NCBI GenBank assembly: GCA_965205655.1
Contig: CBDBIJ010000081.1
Coordinates: 1-52,888 of the forward strand
Direction of reading: 5' to 3'
DNA length: 52,888 nt
Origin: Candidatus Latescibacterota bacterium
Lineage (GTDB): Bacteria; Latescibacterota; UBA2968; UBA8231
A model generated the notes under the pieces. It did not search any database, was not told the DNA's origin, and saw only the letters and a program-made list of their open reading frames with translations. The position numbers and the translations under genes are program-made. Each line of letters opens with the position of its first letter. Positions within the stretch are counted from its first letter, which is position 1. Below are positions 3,486 to 15,078 of the stretch, piece after piece.

Positions 3486-5281
3486 CTAGGCCGGGCTGTC
3501 CTCGACCCAGTCGTCGCGGCTGACGTCGGCGAGCAGCTCCTGGGCCTCGATCATTCGCCGGTAGGGGCCGTCGTCTGTCAACAGCTGGGCGTGGCGCCCC
3601 GTCTCCACGACGCGGCCCTGCTCGAGGACGACGATGAGGTCGGCGTGGCGCACCGTCGACAGGCGATGGGCGATGACGAGGGTCGTCCGGTTCGCCATCA
3701 GGCGGCTGAGGGCCTCCTGGATGAGCAGCTCGGTGTGGGTATCGACGGCAGAGGTCGCCTCGTCGAGAATGAGGATGGGCGCATCCGAGAGCAGGGCGCG
3801 GGCGATGGCGAGGCGCTGCTTCTGGCCCCCGGAGAGGCGCACACCACGCTCGCCGATAACGGTGTCGTAGCCTTCGGGGAGCTGCTCAATGAACTCGTCG
3901 GCATTGGCGGCGGCTGCGGCGGCGCGCAGGTCGGCATCGGGGATTGCCGTCTTTGCCGCCGTGGAGGTCGCCTCCACGCCCGAACCCAATGTTTTCGGCC
4001 ACGGTACCGTGGAAGAGAAACACGTCCTGGTCCACCGACGCGATGTGGCCGCGCACCCAGGCCAGCGGCAGCTCGCGCACGTCGTGGCTGCCGATGCGGA
4101 CGGCGCCCTGCTGCGGGTCGTAGTAGCGCGGCAGCAGGTGCGAGATCGTCGTCTTGCCCGCCCCCGTGGGTCCCACGAGGGCGACGACAGCGCCGGCTGG
4201 TACGTGGAAATCGACGTCGTGCAGCACCGGGCCATCGGGTTCGTCGTAGGCGAAGGTGATACGGTCGAAGTGCACGTCCCAGGTAGCGGTATTGGGGATG
4301 CTGGCGTGGGGCGCGTCGACGATGTCGGGCTCGACGGCGAGCAGCTGGAAGACGCGGCCGGTGCTGACGGCGGCCTTCTGCAAAACATCATTGATCGATG
4401 CCAGCTGCAGGAAGGGCTGGTAGATGTGGCCGAGGTAGACGATGAAGACGAAGAGGTCGGCGACGCTGATGCGGTCGGCCAGGGCCGCCGTGCCGCCGGT
4501 CCAGATGACGAGCACGATGCCGATGCCGCCGGCAGCCTCGACGAGGCCGGCGGGAATGAGGGAGACGGAGTTCGCCTGAATGGAGGCGTCGCGGAAGGCA
4601 CTGCTGTGATGCTCGACGCGCCGCGCCGCGCGCTCCTCCTGGACGAAGGCCTTGATGACGCGGATGCCGGCGTAGTGGTCATGGACGCGGGCGACGAGCT
4701 CCGACAGCCGCGAGCGCACGTGGCCCCACAGCCGGTGCACACGGCGGACGAAACGGAAGACGAGAAAGCCGGCGACGGGGATCGGCAGCAGGGGTGATGG
4801 CGGCGAGCTCGGGGTCGAGCGTGAAGAGGACGACCATCATCGCCGTGGGGATGACGAAAGCGAGGATGGTCTCGGGCACGCCGTGGGCGATGAAGTCCTC
4901 TACGGCCTCGATGTCGTTGATGGAGCGCGAGATGAGATTGCCGGTGCGCTCGCCGGCAAAGAATCGATGCGGCAGGCTCTGCACGTGCCGGTAGACGCGC
5001 ACCATCAACTCGTGGAGGGTGCCGTAGGCGGCCTGGTGGGAGAACCGCCCGTAGCCATAGCGCGTGGCGCCGCGTAGCAGGTAAACGCACAGGAGGCCGG
5101 CGCTGAGCAGCAGGAGCTCGTCGGGGGTGCCACCGCCCTCCGTGATCCAGGCGATGAGCTGGCGGATGAGCAGCGGCGGCACCAGATTGGCGCCGGCGAA
5201 CAAGAGGCCGCACAACACCGACAGGGTCAGCAGCCGGCGGCGTCCGGCGAGGATATTCCAGAATTGGGCGAGGAAAGCCAT
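3486..5281 (-). CDS. ABC transporter, fused permease/ATPase (MsbA-like); two +1 frameshifts (~4791-4794 and ~3940-3985)
   Basis: TM domain, Walker [10 protein letters not shown], signature LSGGQKQR, Walker [10 protein letters not shown] and IAHRLST, spread over three overlapping frames. Confidence 0.88.
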
Positions 5282-5351
5282 GGGCAGAGAACAACGGGAT
5301 CGGAGCCGCCGTTGGCGAATCCGATGCAGCGAGCCTGATTTTTCGCTGGTA

Positions 5352-5981
5352 CTAGTCGCCCAGCGCTGCGAGGATGTGGGCTGCCACGACTCTGGCGAGT
5401 TCCGCCGAACCCTCGGGGGTGAAGTGCACGTCACCGGGGTTCTGGATAGCGGCGAGGCGTTCCAGGGCGTAAGCGTGGAGGTCGTTGATGGAGATGCCGT
5501 GGGCGCGCATGATGCTCTCGGCCGCTACATTGTAGGGGATCTCGTCTCCCTTCGTGCGGCGGCCGGAGCCTTTGGGCACGGGCGTGGTCGTGCACCAGAT
5601 GAGTGAGGCGCGGGTCTGTTCCAGGCGTTCGGTCAGGCTGCTCAGGTTGGTTTCGTACTGATCGATGGGTACCTGGTGCCGGCCGTCTTCCGGAGTAGCG
5701 CGCTCATCTTGCTCGTTCATGTGCTTGATGTCGTGCAGACCAAAGTTGAAGTGGATGACATCCCAGGGACCATCGCCGAGCCAGGCATCGAGTTCTGCCA
5801 CGCCGTAGCTTGTGGGGCCGCAGTTCGCGGGTGGGCGGTGGATGTTGGCCTTGTCCCGGAGCAGCTCGCGCACGGGGAGGGTGTAGGCTATGGAGATGGA
5901 ATCGCCGATGAGAAGGACGCGCGGCAGGCCGGGAACGTCCTGGATGGGCTCGTAGGGTTCGGGGGTGTCTGGTGTGCTCAT
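5352..5981 (-). CDS. SGNH/GDSL hydrolase
   Basis: LLIGDSIS, FNFGLHD and DVHF motifs. Confidence 0.88.
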   Translation of the reverse strand: MSTPDTPEPYEPIQDVPGLPRVLLIGDSISIAYTLPVRELLRDKANIHRPPANCGPTSYGVAELDAWLGDGPWDVIHFNFGLHDIKHMNEQDERATPEDGRHQVPIDQYETNLSSLTERLEQTRASLIWCTTTPVPKGSGRRTKGDEIPYNVAAESIMRAHGISINDLHAYALERLAAIQNPGDVHFTPEGSAELARVVAAHILAALGD

Positions 5982-6173: not shown

Positions 6174-7366
6174 ATGAAGATCACAGATGTGAAATGCGCG
6201 GTCCTTGGCACCAATCCGGTCGTTCGAGTCACGACCAATGAGGGTATCAGTGGGCTCGGTGCCATGGAGTCGGGCAGGGCCTACAACCGGGAGCAGGTTC
6301 CTTTCTACAAGGGCCGCATTCTGGGCGAAGATCCCACGAGCGTCGAACGGGTGATGATGAGCATCCGCAGGCTGGGGGCCTTCAAGCCCTGGGGCAGCGT
6401 GGTCAGCGCCATCGAGATGGCTTTGTGGGATATCGCCGGAAAGGCGGCGGGCCTGCCCATCCACAGGCTGCTGGGCGGCAAGGTCCGCGACAAGGTGCGG
6501 GTGTACAACGGCGGTCTGCGTTTCCCCATGGACGGCTCCTCTCCGGAAGCCTACGCAGACAACATGGCCAGGATGAAGGCGGCCGATGAAGGGTTCACCA
6601 TCATCAAACAGGGGGTCGTCTTCCACAGCGGGATGCCGACCGAGGTCCCCAACTTCTTTTACGGTGACCGGATCGGGAATGCACATTACGCCAGCCGCGG
6701 ACCCATGACCGAGCGCGGGCTGAAGCATGTCGTCTCCTGCGTAGAGGCCATGAAGGGGGGTCCTGGGAGACGAGGTCGGCCTGGCGCTGGACTGCGGACC
6801 GGGAATGGCCGTCTCCGATGCCATCAGACTCGCCCGGGTGCTGGAGCCCTACAACCTGATGTGGCTCGAAGACATGATCACCGGAGACTACACGCCCTAC
6901 GTTCTGGCCGATCTCTATCGCGAGGTGACGCGCAGCACGTCGATTCCGATCCACACCGGCGAGCAGATCTACCTGCGACAGAATTTCAAGGAGCTCTTCG
7001 AGAAGCAGGCGATAAACGTCGTCGGACCCGACCCCTGCGACGTCGGTGGTCTGGCGGAATTGAAGTGGGTGGCCCGAGTACGCCGACCTCAACGGCATCC
7101 TGATGGCACCCCACGGAACGGCTGTCGGTCTGATCGGTCTGGCAGGGCTGGTGCAGGTTGCGGCGGTCATGCCGCAGAATTTCATGGCCTTCGAGTATCC
7201 TGTAGGTCGACCGGAATGGTGGTATGATATCGTCGAGGGGCTGCCGGACCCCATCGTCACGGACAGCTTCATAGAGGTCTGGGACACTCCGGGGCTGGGT
7301 GTAGAGATCAACCCGGAGGCGGCGGCACAGTATCTGCAGGAAGAGGACGCGGATTTCTTCGATTAG
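6174..7366 (+). CDS. Mandelate racemase/muconate lactonizing enzyme (enolase superfamily); +1 frameshifts at ~6755-6760 and ~7073-7075
   Basis: SAIEMALWDIAGKAAGLPIHRLLGGKVRD; ALDCG, WLED, IHTGEQ, GPDPCDVGG, MAPH; PGLGVEIN. Confidence 0.9.
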
Positions 7367-7433: not shown

Positions 7434-9509
7434 TTGATGCAGGTGTCCGATTCGAATTCGATCTTTCTCGAAGGTCCTGCCGGCGCCGGCAAGACCACAC
7501 GGGCCATATCCCGGATTCAATCTCTGATTGATTCGGGCATCCAACCCGGCAACATCCTCCTCCTGACGCCACACCGCAGCTACACTCTGCCATATCAGGA
7601 AGCGTTCGATCTACAAACATGGTACGGCCTCGGCAAGGCGACGATCGGTGGCCTGGCCCGGCGCTACGTCTCCCTGTTCTGGCCCGAGATTCCGCCGCGC
7701 GCGAAGTACTCATTCTTGGAGACCCGGGAGCCGACGTTCCTGACCTACGAGGTGGCCCAGTACTTCATGGCCCGTCTCGTGTCGCCTCTGCTGGAGCAGG
7801 GCTACTTCTCGGATCTGAAGCTGACGAGGCACCGGCTCTACAGCCAGCTTCTCGACAATCTCAACAAGCCAGCCGTCAACGACATTCCCCTCGACGATCT
7901 GAGCAGCTATCTGCAGGCGGCGAGGATCTCCGATGAGACAGCAAAGAGCAGGGTCGATGAGATTTCGAGCACGGTCGTGTCCTACCGTGAGTTCTGCGCG
8001 ACACACAATCTCATCGACTTCTCGCTCTATCTCGAGCTCTTCCGCGATCTGATCAGGGAAGTGGAGGCGGCGCGTAGCTATCTCTACGCCCAGTACCGAC
8101 ACATCGTCTACGACAACTGCGAGGAGGATGTGCCGCTGGCGCACGAGCTCATCCGCGAGTGGATGCGGCACCCGGATTCCCAGTTGGAGTCCGTCCTCAT
8201 CATCTTCGATCGGGAGGCGGGATTCAGGAAGTTCCTGGCGGCGAACCCGCACAGTGCCCGCGGCCTGGCGCAGGAGTGCGCCGAGTCGGAGGTGCTCGAG
8301 GAGACCCCACACACACCGAAACCGCTGTTGAATTTCGGCTACTGCCTCATCAACGCGATCGCGAATGCGTCGCTCCACGAGGTCGGGCCAGGCTCAGGGG
8401 AGCGTCACGTTCACGTCTACTCCGACCGCCTTCATTACCAGATGGTGCTGCGGGTCGTGCGCCGGGTCGCGTCTCTGGTCGAAAGTGGCCTCTCGCCGCA
8501 GGAGATCGTCATCATAAGTCCCTTTGTGAGCGACAGTCTCTACCATGCTCTGTCGACGGGGCTCGAGCGGGCCGGCCTCGACTACTACTGTCATCGTCCG
8601 TCCCGATCGTTGCGGGATGAACCAGTGACGAAGGTGCTGCTGACGCTTGCCGAGCTCGCCCATCCCTCCTGGGAGCTGGCGCGGCCGTCGCAGGAGGCCG
8701 TCGGTCACATGTTCACGGCGATTCTGGCCGACGCAGACCTCGTGCGCTCGGCGGTGCTGGCGGCGGCGGTGTACGCTCCAATCCCCGGGGGGCTGAAGCC
8801 GTTCGACGAGGTGCGGGCCGATGTCCGGGACAGGGTGACATACCGTCTCGGCGAATCCTACGAGAGGCTGCGGGTCTGGCTCGAGGAGTACGTGTCGAAG
8901 GAGGCGCTGCCAATCGATCATTTTCTGAGCCGCGTTTTTGGGGAGCTTCTGTCACAGCCGGGGTTTGGGTTCTACAAGGACATGCAGGCGGGGGCGCACG
9001 TTGGATCTCTGATGGAGTCGGCGCGCAAGTTCCGGCGGGCGGTCTCGGATGTGCTCGAGCGCGAAGCGGAATCGGTCGGCAAGGCGTATGTGGAGATGGT
9101 GCGGGAGGGAGTGGTATCCGGGTTCTACGCGGTCGAATGGGCCGATCAGCCGGACGCCGTCCTGATCGCGCCGGCTCACACCTTTCTGGTTCGCAATCGC
9201 AGTTGCGCTCATCAGCTCTGGGTCGATGTCGGGAGCACGGCGTGGCATCGCCGCATTCATCAGCCGCTGACGAATCCGTACGTGCTGAGCAAGGACTGGA
9301 ACAGGGACGACCAGTGGTCGGCGGTGTGGGAGCAGCGTTTCGAAACGGAGCGGCTGACGCGGATTGTGTCGGGGTTGGTCAGGCGCTGTACGGACTCGCT
9401 CCACCTCTTCGCCAGCGAGCTGAGTGCTCACGGGCAGGAGCAGACCGGGGATCTGCTCGTGGCGCTGGGGTACGCGATGCGAGAGCTGCCGGGGGAGTGG
9501 GATTCATGA
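7434..9509 (+). CDS. Degenerate SF1 helicase-like protein (AddB/AdnA/RecC-like partner, no nuclease domain)
   Basis: Walker A GPAGAGKTT and a UvrD-like motif Ia region (GIQPGNILLLTP). 'LIDFSL' and 'EIVIISP' are present, but motif II is degenerate (VYDNCEED) and motif VI is eroded. ATGA overlap with the next gene. Confidence 0.65.
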   Translation: MMQVSDSNSIFLEGPAGAGKTTRAISRIQSLIDSGIQPGNILLLTPHRSYTLPYQEAFDLQTWYGLGKATIGGLARRYVSLFWPEIPPRAKYSFLETREPTFLTYEVAQYFMARLVSPLLEQGYFSDLKLTRHRLYSQLLDNLNKPAVNDIPLDDLSSYLQAARISDETAKSRVDEISSTVVSYREFCATHNLIDFSLYLELFRDLIREVEAARSYLYAQYRHIVYDNCEEDVPLAHELIREWMRHPDSQLESVLIIFDREAGFRKFLAANPHSARGLAQECAESEVLEETPHTPKPLLNFGYCLINAIANASLHEVGPGSGERHVHVYSDRLHYQMVLRVVRRVASLVESGLSPQEIVIISPFVSDSLYHALSTGLERAGLDYYCHRPSRSLRDEPVTKVLLTLAELAHPSWELARPSQEAVGHMFTAILADADLVRSAVLAAAVYAPIPGGLKPFDEVRADVRDRVTYRLGESYERLRVWLEEYVSKEALPIDHFLSRVFGELLSQPGFGFYKDMQAGAHVGSLMESARKFRRAVSDVLEREAESVGKAYVEMVREGVVSGFYAVEWADQPDAVLIAPAHTFLVRNRSCAHQLWVDVGSTAWHRRIHQPLTNPYVLSKDWNRDDQWSAVWEQRFETERLTRIVSGLVRRCTDSLHLFASELSAHGQEQTGDLLVALGYAMRELPGEWDS

Positions 9510-11740
9510 ACCAGCTGCGTCCCGCTCAGGAAGAGATCCTGAAATACAAATCCGGCACGATGGGAATCGCGGCGGTGCCGGGCAGCGGCAAGACCTGGAC
9601 GCTGTCGCAGATCGCCGCGTCGCTGATCGTCAGCGGGGTGCTGAAGCAGCGGCAGGAGGTGCTCGTGGTGACGCTGGTGAATGCGGCGGTCGACAACTTC
9701 CGGCACCGGATCGCCGGGTTTTTGCAGGAGCGGGGGCTGCTGCCAGGGTTGGGATACCGGGTGCGGACGCTGCACAGTCTGGCGCACGAGATCGTGGCGC
9801 AGTCGTCGAGTATGGTGGGGTTGGCGAGCGACTTCTCGGTGGTAGACGAGCGCATCGCGGAGTCCATCCTGAAGACGGCGTTTCGGGCGGCCTATCCGCG
9901 GCACAGGGAGGAGCTGCTGCCGTTTCTCATCGACGACATCTCCGACTTCAGACGGCGGAAGGTCATCGACGACGATCTGCCGTCCGTGCTCGAGCATGTG
10001 ACGCGGAATGCCATCTCTCATCTGAAGAGCCGACTGTGCTCTCCGCCGGACGTTCGCGATCGTCTGACGCCTGATAGCCCGGTGCTGGCCCGGCTGGCAG
10101 TCGACGTGTATGAGCGCTACGAACAGGCGCTGGCGACTCGGGGCTCGCTCGATTTCGACGACCTGATTTCGTCGGCGATTCGAGCACTGGACATGGACGA
10201 AACGCTGGTGGAGAGGCTGCGGGAGAGGTGGCCGTACATCCTGGAGGACGAGGCGCAGGACAGCAGCGCCCTGCAGGAGCAGATTTTGCGGCGGCTGGCC
10301 GGCGAGGATGGCGGCAACTGGGTCCGTGTGGGCGATCCGAATCAGGCGATCTACGAAACCTTCACGACAGCCGACCCGAAGTACCTGCGCGCCTTTCTGG
10401 AAGAGGCGGACATCAAGCACGATCTGCCGAATTCCGGCAGGTCGGGAGGGCCGATCATCAGCCTGGCGAACGAGCTGATCCGCTGGTGCCGCCATGAGCA
10501 TCCGGTCGACGAGGTGCGCAGCGGGCTGAGTCTGCCATTCATCGAGCCGACGCCACCGGGGGATCCGCAACCGAATCCGGAAGACGGAGCCTGCCGGGTG
10601 GCGCTCGAGGATCGCGGCGATGGTCCGGAGGAGGAGTTGGAGGGGGTGATCGCGTCGGTGCGAACCTGGCTGGCGCACCACGGTGACGCAACAGTGGCGA
10701 TTCTGGTGCCGACGAATGCGCGAGGGGCGCAGGTCGTAAAGGCGCTCAACGACGCGCGAATCCCCTGTTGCGACGCGCTGCTGCGAACGGCGACGGCGAC
10801 CCGCGAAGCGGCCGGCGCTCTGGGCATCGTGCTGCGGCACTTGGCGCAACCGGATGCGCAGAGGACGGTTTCGGGCGTCTACCGGGTCTGGTATCACCGC
10901 GTGCTCAAAGAGGGGTCGACGGAGCAGGGGGAGGAGCGACTGGCAACGCATCTGACGGCACTCCAGCAGTGGGAGCGGAGCGAGGATCTCCTGTGGCCAC
11001 TGCCCGGAACGGATGACGGCGAGGGCGTGCCCGAGGGTATGAGATCCTACTTCGACCGCTTCCGCGAGCAACTGCAGCGCTGGCACGGTCTCGTGCTGTT
11101 GCCGATCGGCGAGATGCTGACGGCGATTGCGCAGGACCTGTTCGAGGAGCCGGAGAAGCTGGCGATGACGCAGCTCTTCGGTGAGATCCTGCGGGACCGG
11201 TCGCAATACAACCTGGGAGTAGACCGGCGATTGACTACGCTCGAAGAGCTGGTGGAGGAGCTCGTCGTCATCGCCAGGGATCAGCGTCAGCTGCGCTCGA
11301 TCGAGGCCGACAGCGCTGGGTTCGATCCGGAAGCGCACACCGGCGAGGTCGTCGTTGCGACGATGCACGGCGCCAAGGGGCTGGAGTGGGATCGAGTCTA
11401 CCTGCTTTCGGTGAGCGACTACGAGTTCCCCGCCGGCCGGCCGGCCGATCCCTTTCGGGCCGAGCGCTGGTACGTGCGGGACAAGCTAAGTCTGGAGGCG
11501 GAGACGCTGGCCCAGCTGGACGCCGCGATCGATGGGGGAGAGTATGTCGAAGGGGATGCGACGCGTGAGGCGCGGCTCGACTATTCCCGGGAACGGCTGA
11601 GGCTGCTCTACGTGGGGATCACGCGAGCGCGGAAGGAGCTGATGGTGACGAGCAATGTCGGACAGTATGGAAAGAATGCGCCGGCCGCGTCTTTCACCGC
11701 CCTGCAATCGTATCTGGAGCGAGCCGATGGCGAAGGATAG
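9506..11740 (+). CDS. UvrD/Rep-family ATP-dependent DNA helicase
   Basis: Q motif LRPAQEE; AVPGSGKT; VRTLHSLA; LEDEAQD; VGDPNQAIY; TMHGAKGLEWD; LLYVGITRAR. Confidence 0.93.
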   Translation: MNQLRPAQEEILKYKSGTMGIAAVPGSGKTWTLSQIAASLIVSGVLKQRQEVLVVTLVNAAVDNFRHRIAGFLQERGLLPGLGYRVRTLHSLAHEIVAQSSSMVGLASDFSVVDERIAESILKTAFRAAYPRHREELLPFLIDDISDFRRRKVIDDDLPSVLEHVTRNAISHLKSRLCSPPDVRDRLTPDSPVLARLAVDVYERYEQALATRGSLDFDDLISSAIRALDMDETLVERLRERWPYILEDEAQDSSALQEQILRRLAGEDGGNWVRVGDPNQAIYETFTTADPKYLRAFLEEADIKHDLPNSGRSGGPIISLANELIRWCRHEHPVDEVRSGLSLPFIEPTPPGDPQPNPEDGACRVALEDRGDGPEEELEGVIASVRTWLAHHGDATVAILVPTNARGAQVVKALNDARIPCCDALLRTATATREAAGALGIVLRHLAQPDAQRTVSGVYRVWYHRVLKEGSTEQGEERLATHLTALQQWERSEDLLWPLPGTDDGEGVPEGMRSYFDRFREQLQRWHGLVLLPIGEMLTAIAQDLFEEPEKLAMTQLFGEILRDRSQYNLGVDRRLTTLEELVEELVVIARDQRQLRSIEADSAGFDPEAHTGEVVVATMHGAKGLEWDRVYLLSVSDYEFPAGRPADPFRAERWYVRDKLSLEAETLAQLDAAIDGGEYVEGDATREARLDYSRERLRLLYVGITRARKELMVTSNVGQYGKNAPAASFTALQSYLERADGEG

Positions 11741-12569
11741 AGAAGCGCTGCTGTTCAGCGCTCACAGTCTGCAGGCCTACGCCGATTGCGAGCGGCGGTT
11801 CGAGCTGAGCTATCTCGAGGAGCTGACCTGGCCGGCGGTCGAGAGCGAGCCTTTGCTGGAGAACGAGCGGCACATGGCTGATGGGCGGCGCTTCCACGAG
11901 ATGGTGCATCGCGATACGCTGGGGATATCAGTGACGGTGCCATCCGGTGAAGGAGATGAAGACCTGGCGCGCTGGTGGCGGAACTACATGACCCATCGGC
12001 CGGCGGACAGGCCGGGGAGGCGGTTCGCGGAGAAGACGATGGTGGGGTCGGCCGGTGGGCGCGCGCTGGTAGCGATGTGCGACCTCATCGTCGTCGATGC
12101 GGAGGGGGATCGGTGCAGGGCGCGCATCTACGATTGGAAAACATGGCGCAAGAAACACTCGCGGCAGTGGCTGCAGGGGAGGCTGCAGACGCGGGTGTAT
12201 CCCTATCTGCTGGTGCAGGCTGGTGCGGCGCTGACGGGTGGGAAGGGGGAGGTGCGGCCGGATGATGTGGAGATGGTGTACTGGTACGCGGATTTCCCCG
12301 AGGCTCTCGAGGTTTTCTCATACAGCGAGGCGCAGTTTCGCGAGGACGAGGAGTACCTCGCGGGCCTTGTGAAAGAAATCATGGCGCGGGAGGCCGGCGC
12401 CTTCGAACTGACCGAGAACGAGAAGCAGTGCACGTTCTGCGCCTATCGCTCGTTTTGCGATCGTGGGGAAGCGGCGGGACGTGCGGAGGACGACTTCGAT
12501 TCGGAAGTCGAAGCAGAGGCGAGTCCGTTGCTGGCGAATCTGGATGATTACGAGGCCATTGCCTTTTAG
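11727..12569 (+). CDS. Stand-alone PD-(D/E)XK nuclease (AddB/RecB/Cas4-like, probable 4Fe-4S)
   Basis: FSAHSLQAYADCERRF; GRRFHE; CDLIV; IYDWKT; LQTRVY (QxxxY); C-terminal CxxCxxxxxC (CTFCAYRSFC). Confidence 0.88.
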   Translation: MAKDREALLFSAHSLQAYADCERRFELSYLEELTWPAVESEPLLENERHMADGRRFHEMVHRDTLGISVTVPSGEGDEDLARWWRNYMTHRPADRPGRRFAEKTMVGSAGGRALVAMCDLIVVDAEGDRCRARIYDWKTWRKKHSRQWLQGRLQTRVYPYLLVQAGAALTGGKGEVRPDDVEMVYWYADFPEALEVFSYSEAQFREDEEYLAGLVKEIMAREAGAFELTENEKQCTFCAYRSFCDRGEAAGRAEDDFDSEVEAEASPLLANLDDYEAIAF

Positions 12570-12610
12570 GGGCGCCATGTGCGAACGATGCGCTGGATGA
12601 ATTCACATCG

Positions 12611-14902
12611 ATGAAACTCGAGTGGCGACTACCTAGGACCGTCGAGGTCTCCGGAGCGCTGCTGGCGGCGACGTCACGCCGGCCGCTGGTGGCGCGCATT
12701 CTTGCAGGGCGCGGGATGTGCGATCCGGAGGAGGTGCGACGATTTCTGGAGCCCGAGATGTACGAGGCTGCGTCGCCGGAGATGCTCCACGATCTGGAAA
12801 TTGGCGTGGAGCGGCTCGACAAAGCGATTCAGGAGGGAGAGCGGATTCTCGTCTGGGGCGACTTCGACGTCGATGGTCAGACGGCGACGTCGCTGCTCGT
12901 CTCCGCGCTCGAAGGGCTCGGCGCGCAGGTGAAGTATCACATTCCGATCAGGGAAAACGAGTCCCACGGGATTCGGCCCGATGTGTTGCAGGGGTACATC
13001 GACGAGGGGATCGATCTGTTGTTGACGTGCGATACGGGGATCGCGTCGGTCGAGGCAATGGCCCAGGCGAATGAGGCAGGCGTGGATGTGGTGGTCACGG
13101 ACCACCACGATCTGCCGGCGAAGCTACCGCAGGCGCTGGCTCTCATCAATCCGAAGTTCCACGACAACGAAGAAAGAAAGCACCCTCTGCGGGGGCTGCC
13201 GGGGGTCGGGGTGGCCTACAAGGTCGTCGAAGCGCTCTATGCGAAGGCCGGGCGGGACAGTGAGCTCGAGCGCTATCTCGATCTGGTGGCACTGGGCATC
13301 GTGGCGGACCTGGCGATTCAGCAGGATGACTCGCGGTATCTTTTGCAGCGGGGCTTGGAGGTGTTGCGCAAGACGGAGCGGCCGGGGCTGCAGGCGCTCA
13401 TGGAAAACAGCGGCGTGCAGGCGGAGTTCCTCAACGACGAGGATATCGGCTTTCAACTCGGGCCGCGACTGAATGCGGTGGGCCGGCTGAGTGACGCGAA
13501 TGTGTCGGTGCCGCTGCTGACAACGGCGGAGGAGGCGCGGGCGCGCGAGATAGCGGAGCAGCTGGAGCGGCTGAACGAGGACCGGAGGTTCGAGACGGCG
13601 GTCGTGTATGACTCGGCAATGGCGCAGATCGATCAGGAGCCGTCGCTGTTGCAGTACGCGGTCCTGGTGATGGTGAACGAACACTGGCATCAAGGTGTGA
13701 TCGGGATTGTGGCGAGCAGATTGGTGGAGGAGTTCGGCAAACCGACGATCCTGTTCGCTTCGGGGGGAGAGGTGGCGCGCGGGTCGGCGCGGTCAGTCGA
13801 AGGATATCACATCACGCAGGCCATCGGCACACAAGAGGAGATGCTGCTGGGGTTCGGCGGGCATCCGATGGCGGCGGGGTTGTCCATCGGGACAGAGAAT
13901 ATCGACGCCTTTCGCCGCGGGGTGTCGAAGGCCATCATCGACCAGCGGCACGGCCGGGGGCCGGAACCGACGCTGGAAATCGAAGCGGAGCTGCCGCTCG
14001 GCGAGCTGACACTCGAAACGGCGCTGCAGCTCGAGGCGCTGGCGCCCTTCGGACCGGGGAATCCGCCGGTGAATGTTCTGTGTCGAGGACTGCGGGTCGA
14101 GGGGGACAAACAGATCGGCAAGGACAAGACGCACCGGAAGCTCGTCGTACGGGACGATGGCATGAGCAAGGCGGAAGTCCTGTGGTGGGGCGGAGCGGGA
14201 GAGCAGCTGCCGGAGGGCAGAATTGACGCGGTGGTGCGGATACGGGCCGGGGCATTTGCCGGGAAGCAAACGGTGACGATCACGCTGCAGGACTTCAGGC
14301 CGAGCGGAGATCTCGAGGCGGAGCTTCAGGGAGTGGACGCCGTCGTCATCGACTGCAGGGGAGAGGCCGATGGGATGAAAATGCTGGAGGAGATTCTGCG
14401 GCGGGAGGCGGGAGCGCAGATCTGGGGTGAGGTGGTGGGGGACGAGAGTATGAGGACGAGGGAAAAGTTGGAGCCGGCAGAGGTGCTCGTTCTCTGGACC
14501 GTGCCACCGGATCGAAAGGTGCTGGGTGAGATTTTGGGTCGGGCGAAGGCAGAGCGGGTCTACGTGTTCGCCGTCGATCCGGGAGTAGACGAGTACGAGG
14601 TGTTCATGCGCCGATTCGGCGGGCTGGTGAGGTACGCGCTCGAACACTACGACGGCAGCAGCACGATCGCTGAGTTGGCGGGCGCAATGGGGCACAGTGA
14701 GCGGGTAATCCTGCGGGGGATCGAGGTGCTGCCGGCGCTGGGCGTGATCGCCGTTCGCCACAATGGGGGCGTGAGGTTCAAGCGCCGGGAGGTGGCACGC
14801 GAGGAAAAAGTGGAAGAGGTGCTGCGGCTGATGCTGGCGGAGTCGCGGGCGTTCAGGCGGGCATATCGGGAGACCGGGGATTTGCAGCGGTTCCTCTCCT
14901 GA
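12611..14902 (+). CDS. recJ: Single-stranded-DNA-specific exonuclease RecJ with C-terminal extension
   Basis: WGDFDVDGQTA, TCDTGI, VTDHHD, GPRLNAVGRL, GSARS, GGHPMAAG, LAPFGPGNP. Confidence 0.96.
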   Translation: MKLEWRLPRTVEVSGALLAATSRRPLVARILAGRGMCDPEEVRRFLEPEMYEAASPEMLHDLEIGVERLDKAIQEGERILVWGDFDVDGQTATSLLVSALEGLGAQVKYHIPIRENESHGIRPDVLQGYIDEGIDLLLTCDTGIASVEAMAQANEAGVDVVVTDHHDLPAKLPQALALINPKFHDNEERKHPLRGLPGVGVAYKVVEALYAKAGRDSELERYLDLVALGIVADLAIQQDDSRYLLQRGLEVLRKTERPGLQALMENSGVQAEFLNDEDIGFQLGPRLNAVGRLSDANVSVPLLTTAEEARAREIAEQLERLNEDRRFETAVVYDSAMAQIDQEPSLLQYAVLVMVNEHWHQGVIGIVASRLVEEFGKPTILFASGGEVARGSARSVEGYHITQAIGTQEEMLLGFGGHPMAAGLSIGTENIDAFRRGVSKAIIDQRHGRGPEPTLEIEAELPLGELTLETALQLEALAPFGPGNPPVNVLCRGLRVEGDKQIGKDKTHRKLVVRDDGMSKAEVLWWGGAGEQLPEGRIDAVVRIRAGAFAGKQTVTITLQDFRPSGDLEAELQGVDAVVIDCRGEADGMKMLEEILRREAGAQIWGEVVGDESMRTREKLEPAEVLVLWTVPPDRKVLGEILGRAKAERVYVFAVDPGVDEYEVFMRRFGGLVRYALEHYDGSSTIAELAGAMGHSERVILRGIEVLPALGVIAVRHNGGVRFKRREVAREEKVEEVLRLMLAESRAFRRAYRETGDLQRFLS

Positions 14903-14917
14903 CTGCGACCCGGCCTC

Positions 14918-14946
14918 TTGCGTAACTTAAAGAAATATCTTATGTT
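14918..14946 (+). promoter_or_regulatory. Putative sigma70 promoter of the DEAD-box helicase gene
   Basis: TTGCGT (14918-14923), 17-nt AT-rich spacer, TATGTT (14941-14946). Overlapped by an imperfect palindrome CGTAAC...GTTACG (14921-14949). Confidence 0.6.
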
Positions 14947-15078
14947 ACGAGGAGTTTGGTAATCCTACCTTTTTATTTCTCCGCGATTTTCCGCGTCAAT
15001 TCTCGGCATTTCGGTCTGTCTTGATGGCTTCCCGAGTGCAGTGTCGCTGTAATCCCGGGTCACCAAGACAGGAGTCTT

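Follow-up and report, generated by a model that had tools for sequence, protein, structure and literature searches.

A cluster of four same-strand genes encoding two UvrD-type helicase-fold proteins, a free nuclease and a long RecJ is located on contig CBDBIJ010000081.1 of a Candidatus Latescibacterota bacterium (assembly GCA_965205655.1), of which the whole analysed stretch of 52,888 nucleotides is referred to here as the window (Table 1). The genes are tightly packed, with an ATGA overlap between genes 1 and 2 (9506-9509), a 14-nucleotide overlap between genes 2 and 3 (11727-11740) and a gap of 41 nucleotides between genes 3 and 4, and the open reading frame coordinates agree with the layout given in an initial annotation that had been made from the sequence alone. 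In an independent public run, positions 8108-14974 are matched by one contig without gaps and with 12 differences; as this contig crosses all three junctions, the operon is not an assembly artefact. The four genes look like a real, conserved and undescribed modular relative of the AddAB/AdnAB end-processing machines.

Table 1. Features of the four-gene operon in the window (aa, amino acids)
Feature	Position	Strand	Description
Gene 1	7434/7437-9509	+	UvrD-fold pseudo-helicase, 690 aa; putative AdnA/AddB-like role, no fused nuclease
Gene 2	9506-11740	+	SF1A 3'-5' helicase motor, intact by its motifs, 744 aa, without nuclease domain
Gene 3	11727-12569	+	Free PD-(D/E)XK nuclease, 280 aa, 1+3 Cys putative iron-sulfur motif
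Gene 3 C-terminal tail	12495-12569	+	Acidic, low-confidence, hydrophobic end motif; candidate docking peptide
Gene 4	12611-14902	+	Long RecJ, 763 aa: DHH, DHHA1, OB and a C-terminal domain of about 200 aa

Single-sequence searches of the PDB with genes 1 and 3 returned no match, so that profile and fold searches were needed. Gene 1 matches PF00580 in Pfam (E 2.5e-7), its profile also matches AddB (E 1.7e-5), and its structural model displays a superfamily 1A (SF1A)/UvrD-type fold over the full length (predicted local distance difference test, pLDDT, 94; predicted template modelling score 0.93), with UvrD as the best match (Z 29) and AdnB at Z 24.7 (root-mean-square deviation, rmsd, 4.6 across 602 residues). 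The reading of a kept Walker A and a degenerate motif II is borne out directly by the P-loop GPAGAGKT at residues 14-21 and DNCEED at residues 226-231, with alignment to UvrD placing DN at the DE of motif II and a glycine at the motif III glutamine. This degeneracy is family-wide, as among 113 members asparagine replaces the catalytic glutamate in 99 and glycine the motif III glutamine in 107, while P-loop K19 is kept in 106 and motif VI Arg650 in 100. Judged from these motifs, gene 1 would bind nucleotide without motor activity. As had been claimed, no nuclease domain (PF12705) is found by Pfam on gene 1 or on gene 2, which end at residues 690 and 744, respectively. By features, a UvrD-like Atlas cluster of 976 aa (rank 16), one member of which is assigned to Melainabacteria, lies near gene 1 and could be a helicase fused to an extra domain. 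The 1419-aa protein P0242, in which the C-terminal half of gene 1 follows a long low-complexity region, is probably a chimera.

Gene 2 matches PF00580 and PF13361 in Pfam and scores under every PcrA, UvrD, Rep, AddA and RecB cut-off, with the AddA models far below. Its complete set of SF1A motifs, already noticed at first inspection, is invariant in all 57 aligned homologues (Q8, G26/G28/K29/T30, D248/E249/Q251, Q280, F286, R312, T619/H621/K624 and T706/R707), and by these motifs gene 2 is an intact SF1A motor. F286 represents the aromatic residue at the ratchet-pawl position, where phenylalanine is tolerated in AdnB (PMC5314763; PMC13000450). Since the genome of the window (G000) carries a separate PcrA-like helicase, a short RecJ, a RecQ-like gene and RecO outside the operon, genes 2 and 4 are not the housekeeping copies.

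Gene 3 matches PF12705 (E 3.9e-23), and C21 together with C235, C238 and C244 is invariant in 33 of 33 aligned rows with D119 and D136-W-K138 conserved, which confirms the proposed free RecB-family nuclease with four cysteines; the 1+3 arrangement matches that of a putative iron-sulfur (Fe-S) cluster of the AddB/AdnA kind. The best fold match of its model is the AdnA nuclease (Z 17.4, rmsd 2.8, 215 residues aligned), ahead of ACE1 and the AddB nuclease (both Z 14.8), with RecB at only about 10, and the Cas4 model is matched with 15.5 bits against a cut-off of 65. Longer proteins containing the gene 3 domain were not found among 8000 candidates, which is weak evidence. A 1097-aa frame in genome G017 considered as a fusion of genes 2 and 3 was rejected, the two genes occupying different frames.

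The C-terminal end of gene 3 is of low predicted confidence (pLDDT below 50 at residues 257-280) and consists of an acidic linker followed by a conserved hydrophobic tip. The tail motif is found at the C-terminus of all 26 complete metagenome homologues and, when the window is set aside, in 12 of the 14 genome and plasmid loci with a long RecJ, in counts for which the pattern was defined after data inspection and related loci are not independent. The SSB of G000 itself terminates in a similar acidic tip, and the RecJ C-terminal domain of Deinococcus radiodurans binds the SSB tail (PMC4846377). Complex prediction with gene 3 residues 232-280 and RecJ gave weak support, at a score of 0.35 against 0.00 for the best control; of 157 solved complexes 116 attain the mark applied, as do 2 of 215 mismatched pairs, but only 18 of the 157 and both mismatches attain it at 0.60 or less. 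The runs share at least 40% of contacts with a partner pLDDT of 38-43, and as a like complex has already been solved, the score may reflect memorization by the predictor. Tentatively, the gene 3 tail may be an SSB-tail-like peptide that docks on RecJ.

Gene 4 clears the cut-off of the RecJ equivalog TIGR00644 (497.9 versus 396.9 bits) and possesses DHH, DHHA1 and OB domains whose metal-binding motifs are intact, so that its identification as RecJ stands. By features, its C-terminal extension resembles clusters of PF10141, the Bacillota RecJ C-terminal family (score 0.91), and among 41 genomes this domain occurs in eight, all of them carriers of gene 1 (8 of 21 carriers versus 0 of 20 others). 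In G012 and G024, the operon RecJ has lost the DHH motif but retains the OB and C-terminal domains. Loci L032 (5942-7858) and L031 (11075-12990) encode an operon RecJ without DHH and metal-binding motifs in which the OB and C-terminal domains remain, the copy in L031 being split over two frames, and other members of that genus lack this RecJ altogether. Genomes with AddAB have often lost RecJ or retain a decayed copy, while G001 and G265 keep both systems intact.

With respect to distribution, at least 2277 of 8000 scored candidates are relatives of gene 1, the named ones deriving from Chloroflexota (Anaerolineae, Caldilineaceae, Thermoflexales), Rhodothermales/Bacteroidota, a metagenome-assembled genome labelled Gemmatimonadetes, Clostridiales and Desulfotomaculales. 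The Atlas cluster near gene 1 that is commonest in Cyanobacteriota (feature score 0.99, 227 of 256 shared) carries the automatic name 'recombinase family protein'; homologue searches and cluster look-ups for gene 1 yielded no cyanobacterial sequence. Because alignment A1 was too diverse for locus scans, the Chloroflexota-type alignment A2 was used, and the loci considered, the best 80 of 473 metagenome loci, are biased to the Chloroflexota-type clade by this narrower choice. Each count takes only loci that reach far enough downstream of gene 1: gene 2 comes next at 50 of the 58 reaching 1 kb or further, genes 2 and 3 come next at 24 of the 34 reaching 4 kb or further, and the complete set of four is found at 15 of the 23 reaching 8.5 kb or further. 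Defence neighbours do not recur in the 80 loci, and those other recurring neighbours that are recognizable by eye (ribosomal proteins, thymidine kinase) are presumably housekeeping-like.

In the host phylum gene 1 is found in 57 of 141 genomes, namely in G000, in 54 of 63 others of its family, in 2 of 3 of a second family and in none elsewhere, and it is a single-copy gene in nearly all host-family carriers. Two copies are present in G011 and a second, fragmented copy in G103; a weak match in G208 was rejected as a UvrD-like protein. In the class of G143, gene 1 occurs in 5 of 151 genomes, and all five (G143 and 4 of 4 further genomes) have the four genes in order. The complete operon is also located on the 56-kb Salinibacter plasmid pSR56 (L043:10001-17884), where an XRE regulator lies upstream of it and its vicinity includes an antitoxin-like gene and a large DEAD/DEAH helicase. 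The gene order thus recurs in Chloroflexota-type loci, Rhodothermia and the Salinibacter plasmid, and the conservation of the neighbourhood across several phyla, proposed initially as a check, is found in metagenome loci, in the class of G143 and on pSR56. In G015 (L129), genes 2 and 3 are separated by an insertion of about 8 kb, and in G013 (L025) one of about 1.5 kb separates genes 1 and 2. Gene 1 has no match in phage records or viral contigs and two matches, one of them strong, in 72,556 plasmid records. A quick tree with midpoint root places gene 1 of the window among Rhodothermia-type sequences at support 96-100 and away from the other host-family clade, which suggests horizontal transfer.

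The anatomy, motifs, folds and conserved gene order observed allow comparison with characterized systems. AdnAB of Mycobacterium smegmatis shares the active 3'-5' SF1A motor with a nucleotide-binding non-motor partner and the AdnA-type Fe-S nuclease; however, its two nucleases are fused, whereas in the operon the Fe-S nuclease is free, an AdnB-type 3'-strand nuclease is lacking and a long RecJ is added. AddAB of the Bacillus subtilis type likewise combines a motor with an inactive helicase-fold subunit, and genes 1 and 3 match parts of AddB, but the operon has no fused nucleases, falls far below the AddA cut-offs and often coexists with an AddAB-like pair. RecBCD differs by RecD, which the operon lacks, by the RecB model, which is matched below its cut-off, and by the RecC domain, not found in the five four-gene genomes. 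RecJ acting with RecQ and SSB in the RecF pathway, including the Deinococcus RecJ bound to the SSB tail, resembles gene 4 as a RecJ equivalog with an extra C-terminal domain, while the operon helicases are SF1A rather than RecQ, a short RecJ and a RecQ-like gene are located elsewhere and the SSB-like tail resides on the nuclease. ACE1 and solo Cas4-like nucleases are, as gene 3, free four-Cys PD-(D/E)XK nucleases, but unlike in APACE1 and CRISPR Cas4 the neighbours of gene 3 are helicases and RecJ, with no Argonaute or CRISPR genes adjoining. Gabija (GajA/GajB) also links a UvrD-like helicase to a nuclease and accounts for generic GajB matches, yet no match to a GajA (OLD-family) model is found on the four proteins, which comprise two helicase-fold subunits and RecJ. 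An operon of unfused UvrD and a Cas4-like nuclease has been described in Clostridiales in a non-defence context (Hudaiberdiev, 2017; PMC5704561); in the available part of that description RecJ and a degenerate helicase are unmentioned, and this operon may overlap with the four-gene module. On the features compared, the module is outside AddAB, AdnAB, RecBCD, Gabija and APACE1, yet probably works like AdnAB. In line with the initial statement that no characterized system of this architecture was known, literature searches covering few subscription papers retrieved no description of the four genes as a unit.

The only genetic lead comes from Synechococcus elongatus, in which six genes have been reported whose loss favours RSF1010, namely ago, rpoD2, 0992, uvrD 2515, cas4 2273 and recJcy 0517 (Taton et al., 2023; PMC10653904). 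Calculated from coordinates, Synpcc7942_0992, _2515, _2273 and _0517 encode proteins of 665, 755, 255 and 775 aa versus 690, 744, 280 and 763 aa for genes 1-4, and their COG classes are COG0210, COG0210, COG2887 and COG0608. Sizes and COG classes match genes 1-4 in turn, and PcrA and RecJ paralogues are present in both genomes; on the other hand, the S. elongatus genes are scattered rather than organized in an operon and are not described as a complex in the available text. From size and COG class, orthology of the four genes with genes 1-4 is judged quite probable. The fitness values for RSF1010 are +2.26 (0992), +2.39 (2515), +3.39 (2273) and +2.24 (0517), with +5.58 for ago (PMC10653904), and those in a transformation screen +1.11, +1.34, +2.68 and +1.12, with +5.16 for ago (PMC7125226). 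With conjugated integrating plasmids, the four are slightly negative or neutral (-0.35, -0.51, -0.02 and -0.26), as is addAB (-0.22). The accessible part of another study lists recJcy without a link to the other three genes (PMC5101192). The module may correspond to these four dispersed genes, without which a model cyanobacterium accepts more foreign DNA, and of the anti-phage or anti-plasmid role raised initially as an alternative, the anti-plasmid part holds the sole genetic support, provided that the S. elongatus genes are orthologues. As loss of genuine AddAB raises transformation 100- to 1000-fold in Thermus (PMC9751324), the transformation phenotype fits an end-processing enzyme and, for the same reason, does not separate defence from repair. 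In Synechococcus PCC 7002, AddAB loss lowers transformation 400- to 500-fold (bioRxiv 2024.09.10.611283), and deletion of recJ in Synechocystis raises it about 100-fold (cited in bioRxiv 2024.09.10.611283).

Considering these data together, the module is best interpreted as a split AdnAB/AddAB-like DNA-end machine that serves repair as well as restriction of incoming DNA, a reading to which we assign a probability of about 58% and for which we infer complex formation, strand polarity and both roles. In AdnAB, the motor follows the 3' strand, and the displaced 5' strand is cut by the Fe-S nuclease that the non-motor subunit carries (PMC5314763; PMC13000450). By analogy, gene 2 would hydrolyse ATP and move 3'-5' along one strand with gene 1 as its nucleotide-binding, non-hydrolysing partner, gene 3 would be positioned at the fork like the AdnA nuclease and nick the displaced 5'-ended strand, and RecJ, possibly tethered via the gene 3 tail, would degrade the same strand exonucleolytically. 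As gene 3 is nearest to the AdnA nuclease, which cuts the 5' strand, gene 3 and RecJ probably both act on this strand. The modular resection machine of the initial annotation is thus retained as a conserved unit with AddAB/AdnAB-like anatomy but not in its division of strands, which had assigned one strand to the Fe-S nuclease and the 5' strand to RecJ. Since no 3'-strand nuclease is encoded in the operon, the expected product would be a 3' tail, generated without a Chi switch and available for RecO-mediated RecA loading, together with fragments of the 5' strand. Foreign DNA that enters the cell or is strand-displaced would be destroyed by this activity, which could also supply Argonaute with guides where an Argonaute is present.

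G000 (84% complete), G013, G015 and G016 possess no intact AddA, RecC domain or long PF12705 pair while RecO is present, G103 harbours addA as fragments only, and PF04257 (RecC) is found in none of the five four-gene genomes. In one survey, RecBCD and AddAB occur together in only 16 genomes (PMC6452273). However, several observations speak against a split end-processing machine. Judged by eye from frame lengths, an AddAB-like pair is clear in 9 of the 21 gene 1 carriers, probable in three (split over contigs) and not found in nine, and in the class of G143 one of the 5 carriers has a pair while a long frame contains the domain in 57 of the 146 non-carriers, which shows no depletion. The anti-correlation with addAB and recQ that had been anticipated was consequently not found, 9-12 of 21 carriers having an AddAB-like pair and G000 a RecQ-like gene, and the module replaces AddAB only in part. 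RecJ is absent or catalytically decayed in many relatives of the operon, and 6 of 24 genome and plasmid loci without a long RecJ still possess the tail motif, these six belonging to one genus in which none of the five members checked genome-wide has a long RecJ. S. elongatus possesses AddAB, and its addA mutant shows the opposite sign for transformation (-0.58; PMC7125226) and RSF1010 (-0.71; PMC10653904). Furthermore, 0992, labelled pcx in the table, is called PD-(D/E)XK-like in the text (PMC10653904), a domain absent from gene 1, and 2273 falls short of gene 3 by 25 aa and possibly has no tail. A DNA-damage phenotype was not found for any module member. G017 carries two AddAB-like pairs in addition to the four-gene module.

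A dedicated surveillance of foreign DNA, by which the module would attack single-stranded or strand-displaced intermediates such as transforming DNA and replicating RSF1010 and make Argonaute guides while contributing little to chromosome repair, is unlikely, though the likeliest of the rival readings. The S. elongatus mutants of 0992, 2515, 2273 and 0517 gain transformation and RSF1010 maintenance as does the ago mutant, the fold of gene 3 resembles ACE1, the module coexists with AddAB, and its distribution is patchy in the class of G143 and extends to a plasmid, gene 1 of the host family falling into two separate clades. Nevertheless, the module is near-core in the host family (54 of 63), defence neighbours are found neither in the window nor recurrently in the 80 loci, and loss of addAB in Thermus produces the same phenotype (PMC9751324). 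In addition, no strong Piwi match was obtained in the 21 carriers, in a search that missed SeAgo in its control.

The best matches of genes 1 and 2 to UvrD/PcrA by sequence and Z-score, the single-strand-specific kinds of both nucleases and the link to replication suggested by Taton et al. (PMC10653904) would also be compatible with an action at stalled forks, gaps or D-loops, as an anti-recombinase or in fork trimming like UvrD/PcrA with RecJ, instead of at double-strand ends; as a degenerate partner with an AdnA-like Fe-S nuclease is the layout of end resection and a separate PcrA-like gene exists in G000, this appears improbable. Still more improbable is a set of co-regulated but physically independent enzymes with RecJ as merely a frequent neighbour: although RecJ is the least constant member, large insertions separate operon genes and the tail motif has exceptions, the long-RecJ C-terminal domain is found only where gene 1 is present (8 of 21 genomes versus 0 of 20), a separate short RecJ is present and the S. 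elongatus candidates have near-equal fitness values.

In the surroundings, the operon is flanked by metabolic genes, a DEAD-box helicase and a SWIB-domain gene, and a Pfam scan of the 36 flanking open reading frames of the window retrieved no defence gene. Neither a sigma-70-like promoter nor an excess of terminators was detected. The third codon position of genes 2-4 (9506-14902) is rich in G, with G3/C3 at about 1.7-2.0 where three genes on the flanks have about 1.0-1.1, and GC skew peaks locally, features which may indicate foreign origin. Towards the start of the window, an open reading frame with transposase-type helix-turn-helix domains is located at 888-2045 on the minus strand, and an ATP-binding cassette transporter gene at 3486-5434, also on the minus strand, is distributed across three overlapping frames. 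An enolase-superfamily (mandelate racemase-like) gene at 6174-7366 is split across frames by a frameshift or assembly error, with the N-terminal domain in 6174-7103 and the C-terminal domain from 6805-7227 onward.

In its widest form, which we hold at somewhat short of even odds, the proposed split DNA-end machine would represent a fourth class of bacterial end-processing machine in Chloroflexota, Cyanobacteria and others, composed of a nuclease-less helicase heterodimer and two detachable 5'-strand nucleases linked by a peptide that mimics the SSB tail and producing 3' tails without a Chi switch; in cyanobacteria it would be what has been missing to account for Argonaute guides and for the restriction of transformation and plasmids, and the four scattered S. 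elongatus hits would be one complex. Most cyanobacteria are without RecBCD and AddAB, and how Argonaute guides are generated in these species is stated to be unclear (2025; PMC12094033), for which the module is a concrete candidate, as it is for the about 12% of genomes without any of the three known machines in one survey (PMC6452273). Should the S. elongatus genes prove to match, mutants and a host that is easy to work with are already at hand. If true, the proposal would explain the effect of the recJ deletion in Synechocystis and point to further knockouts for the engineering of cyanobacteria.

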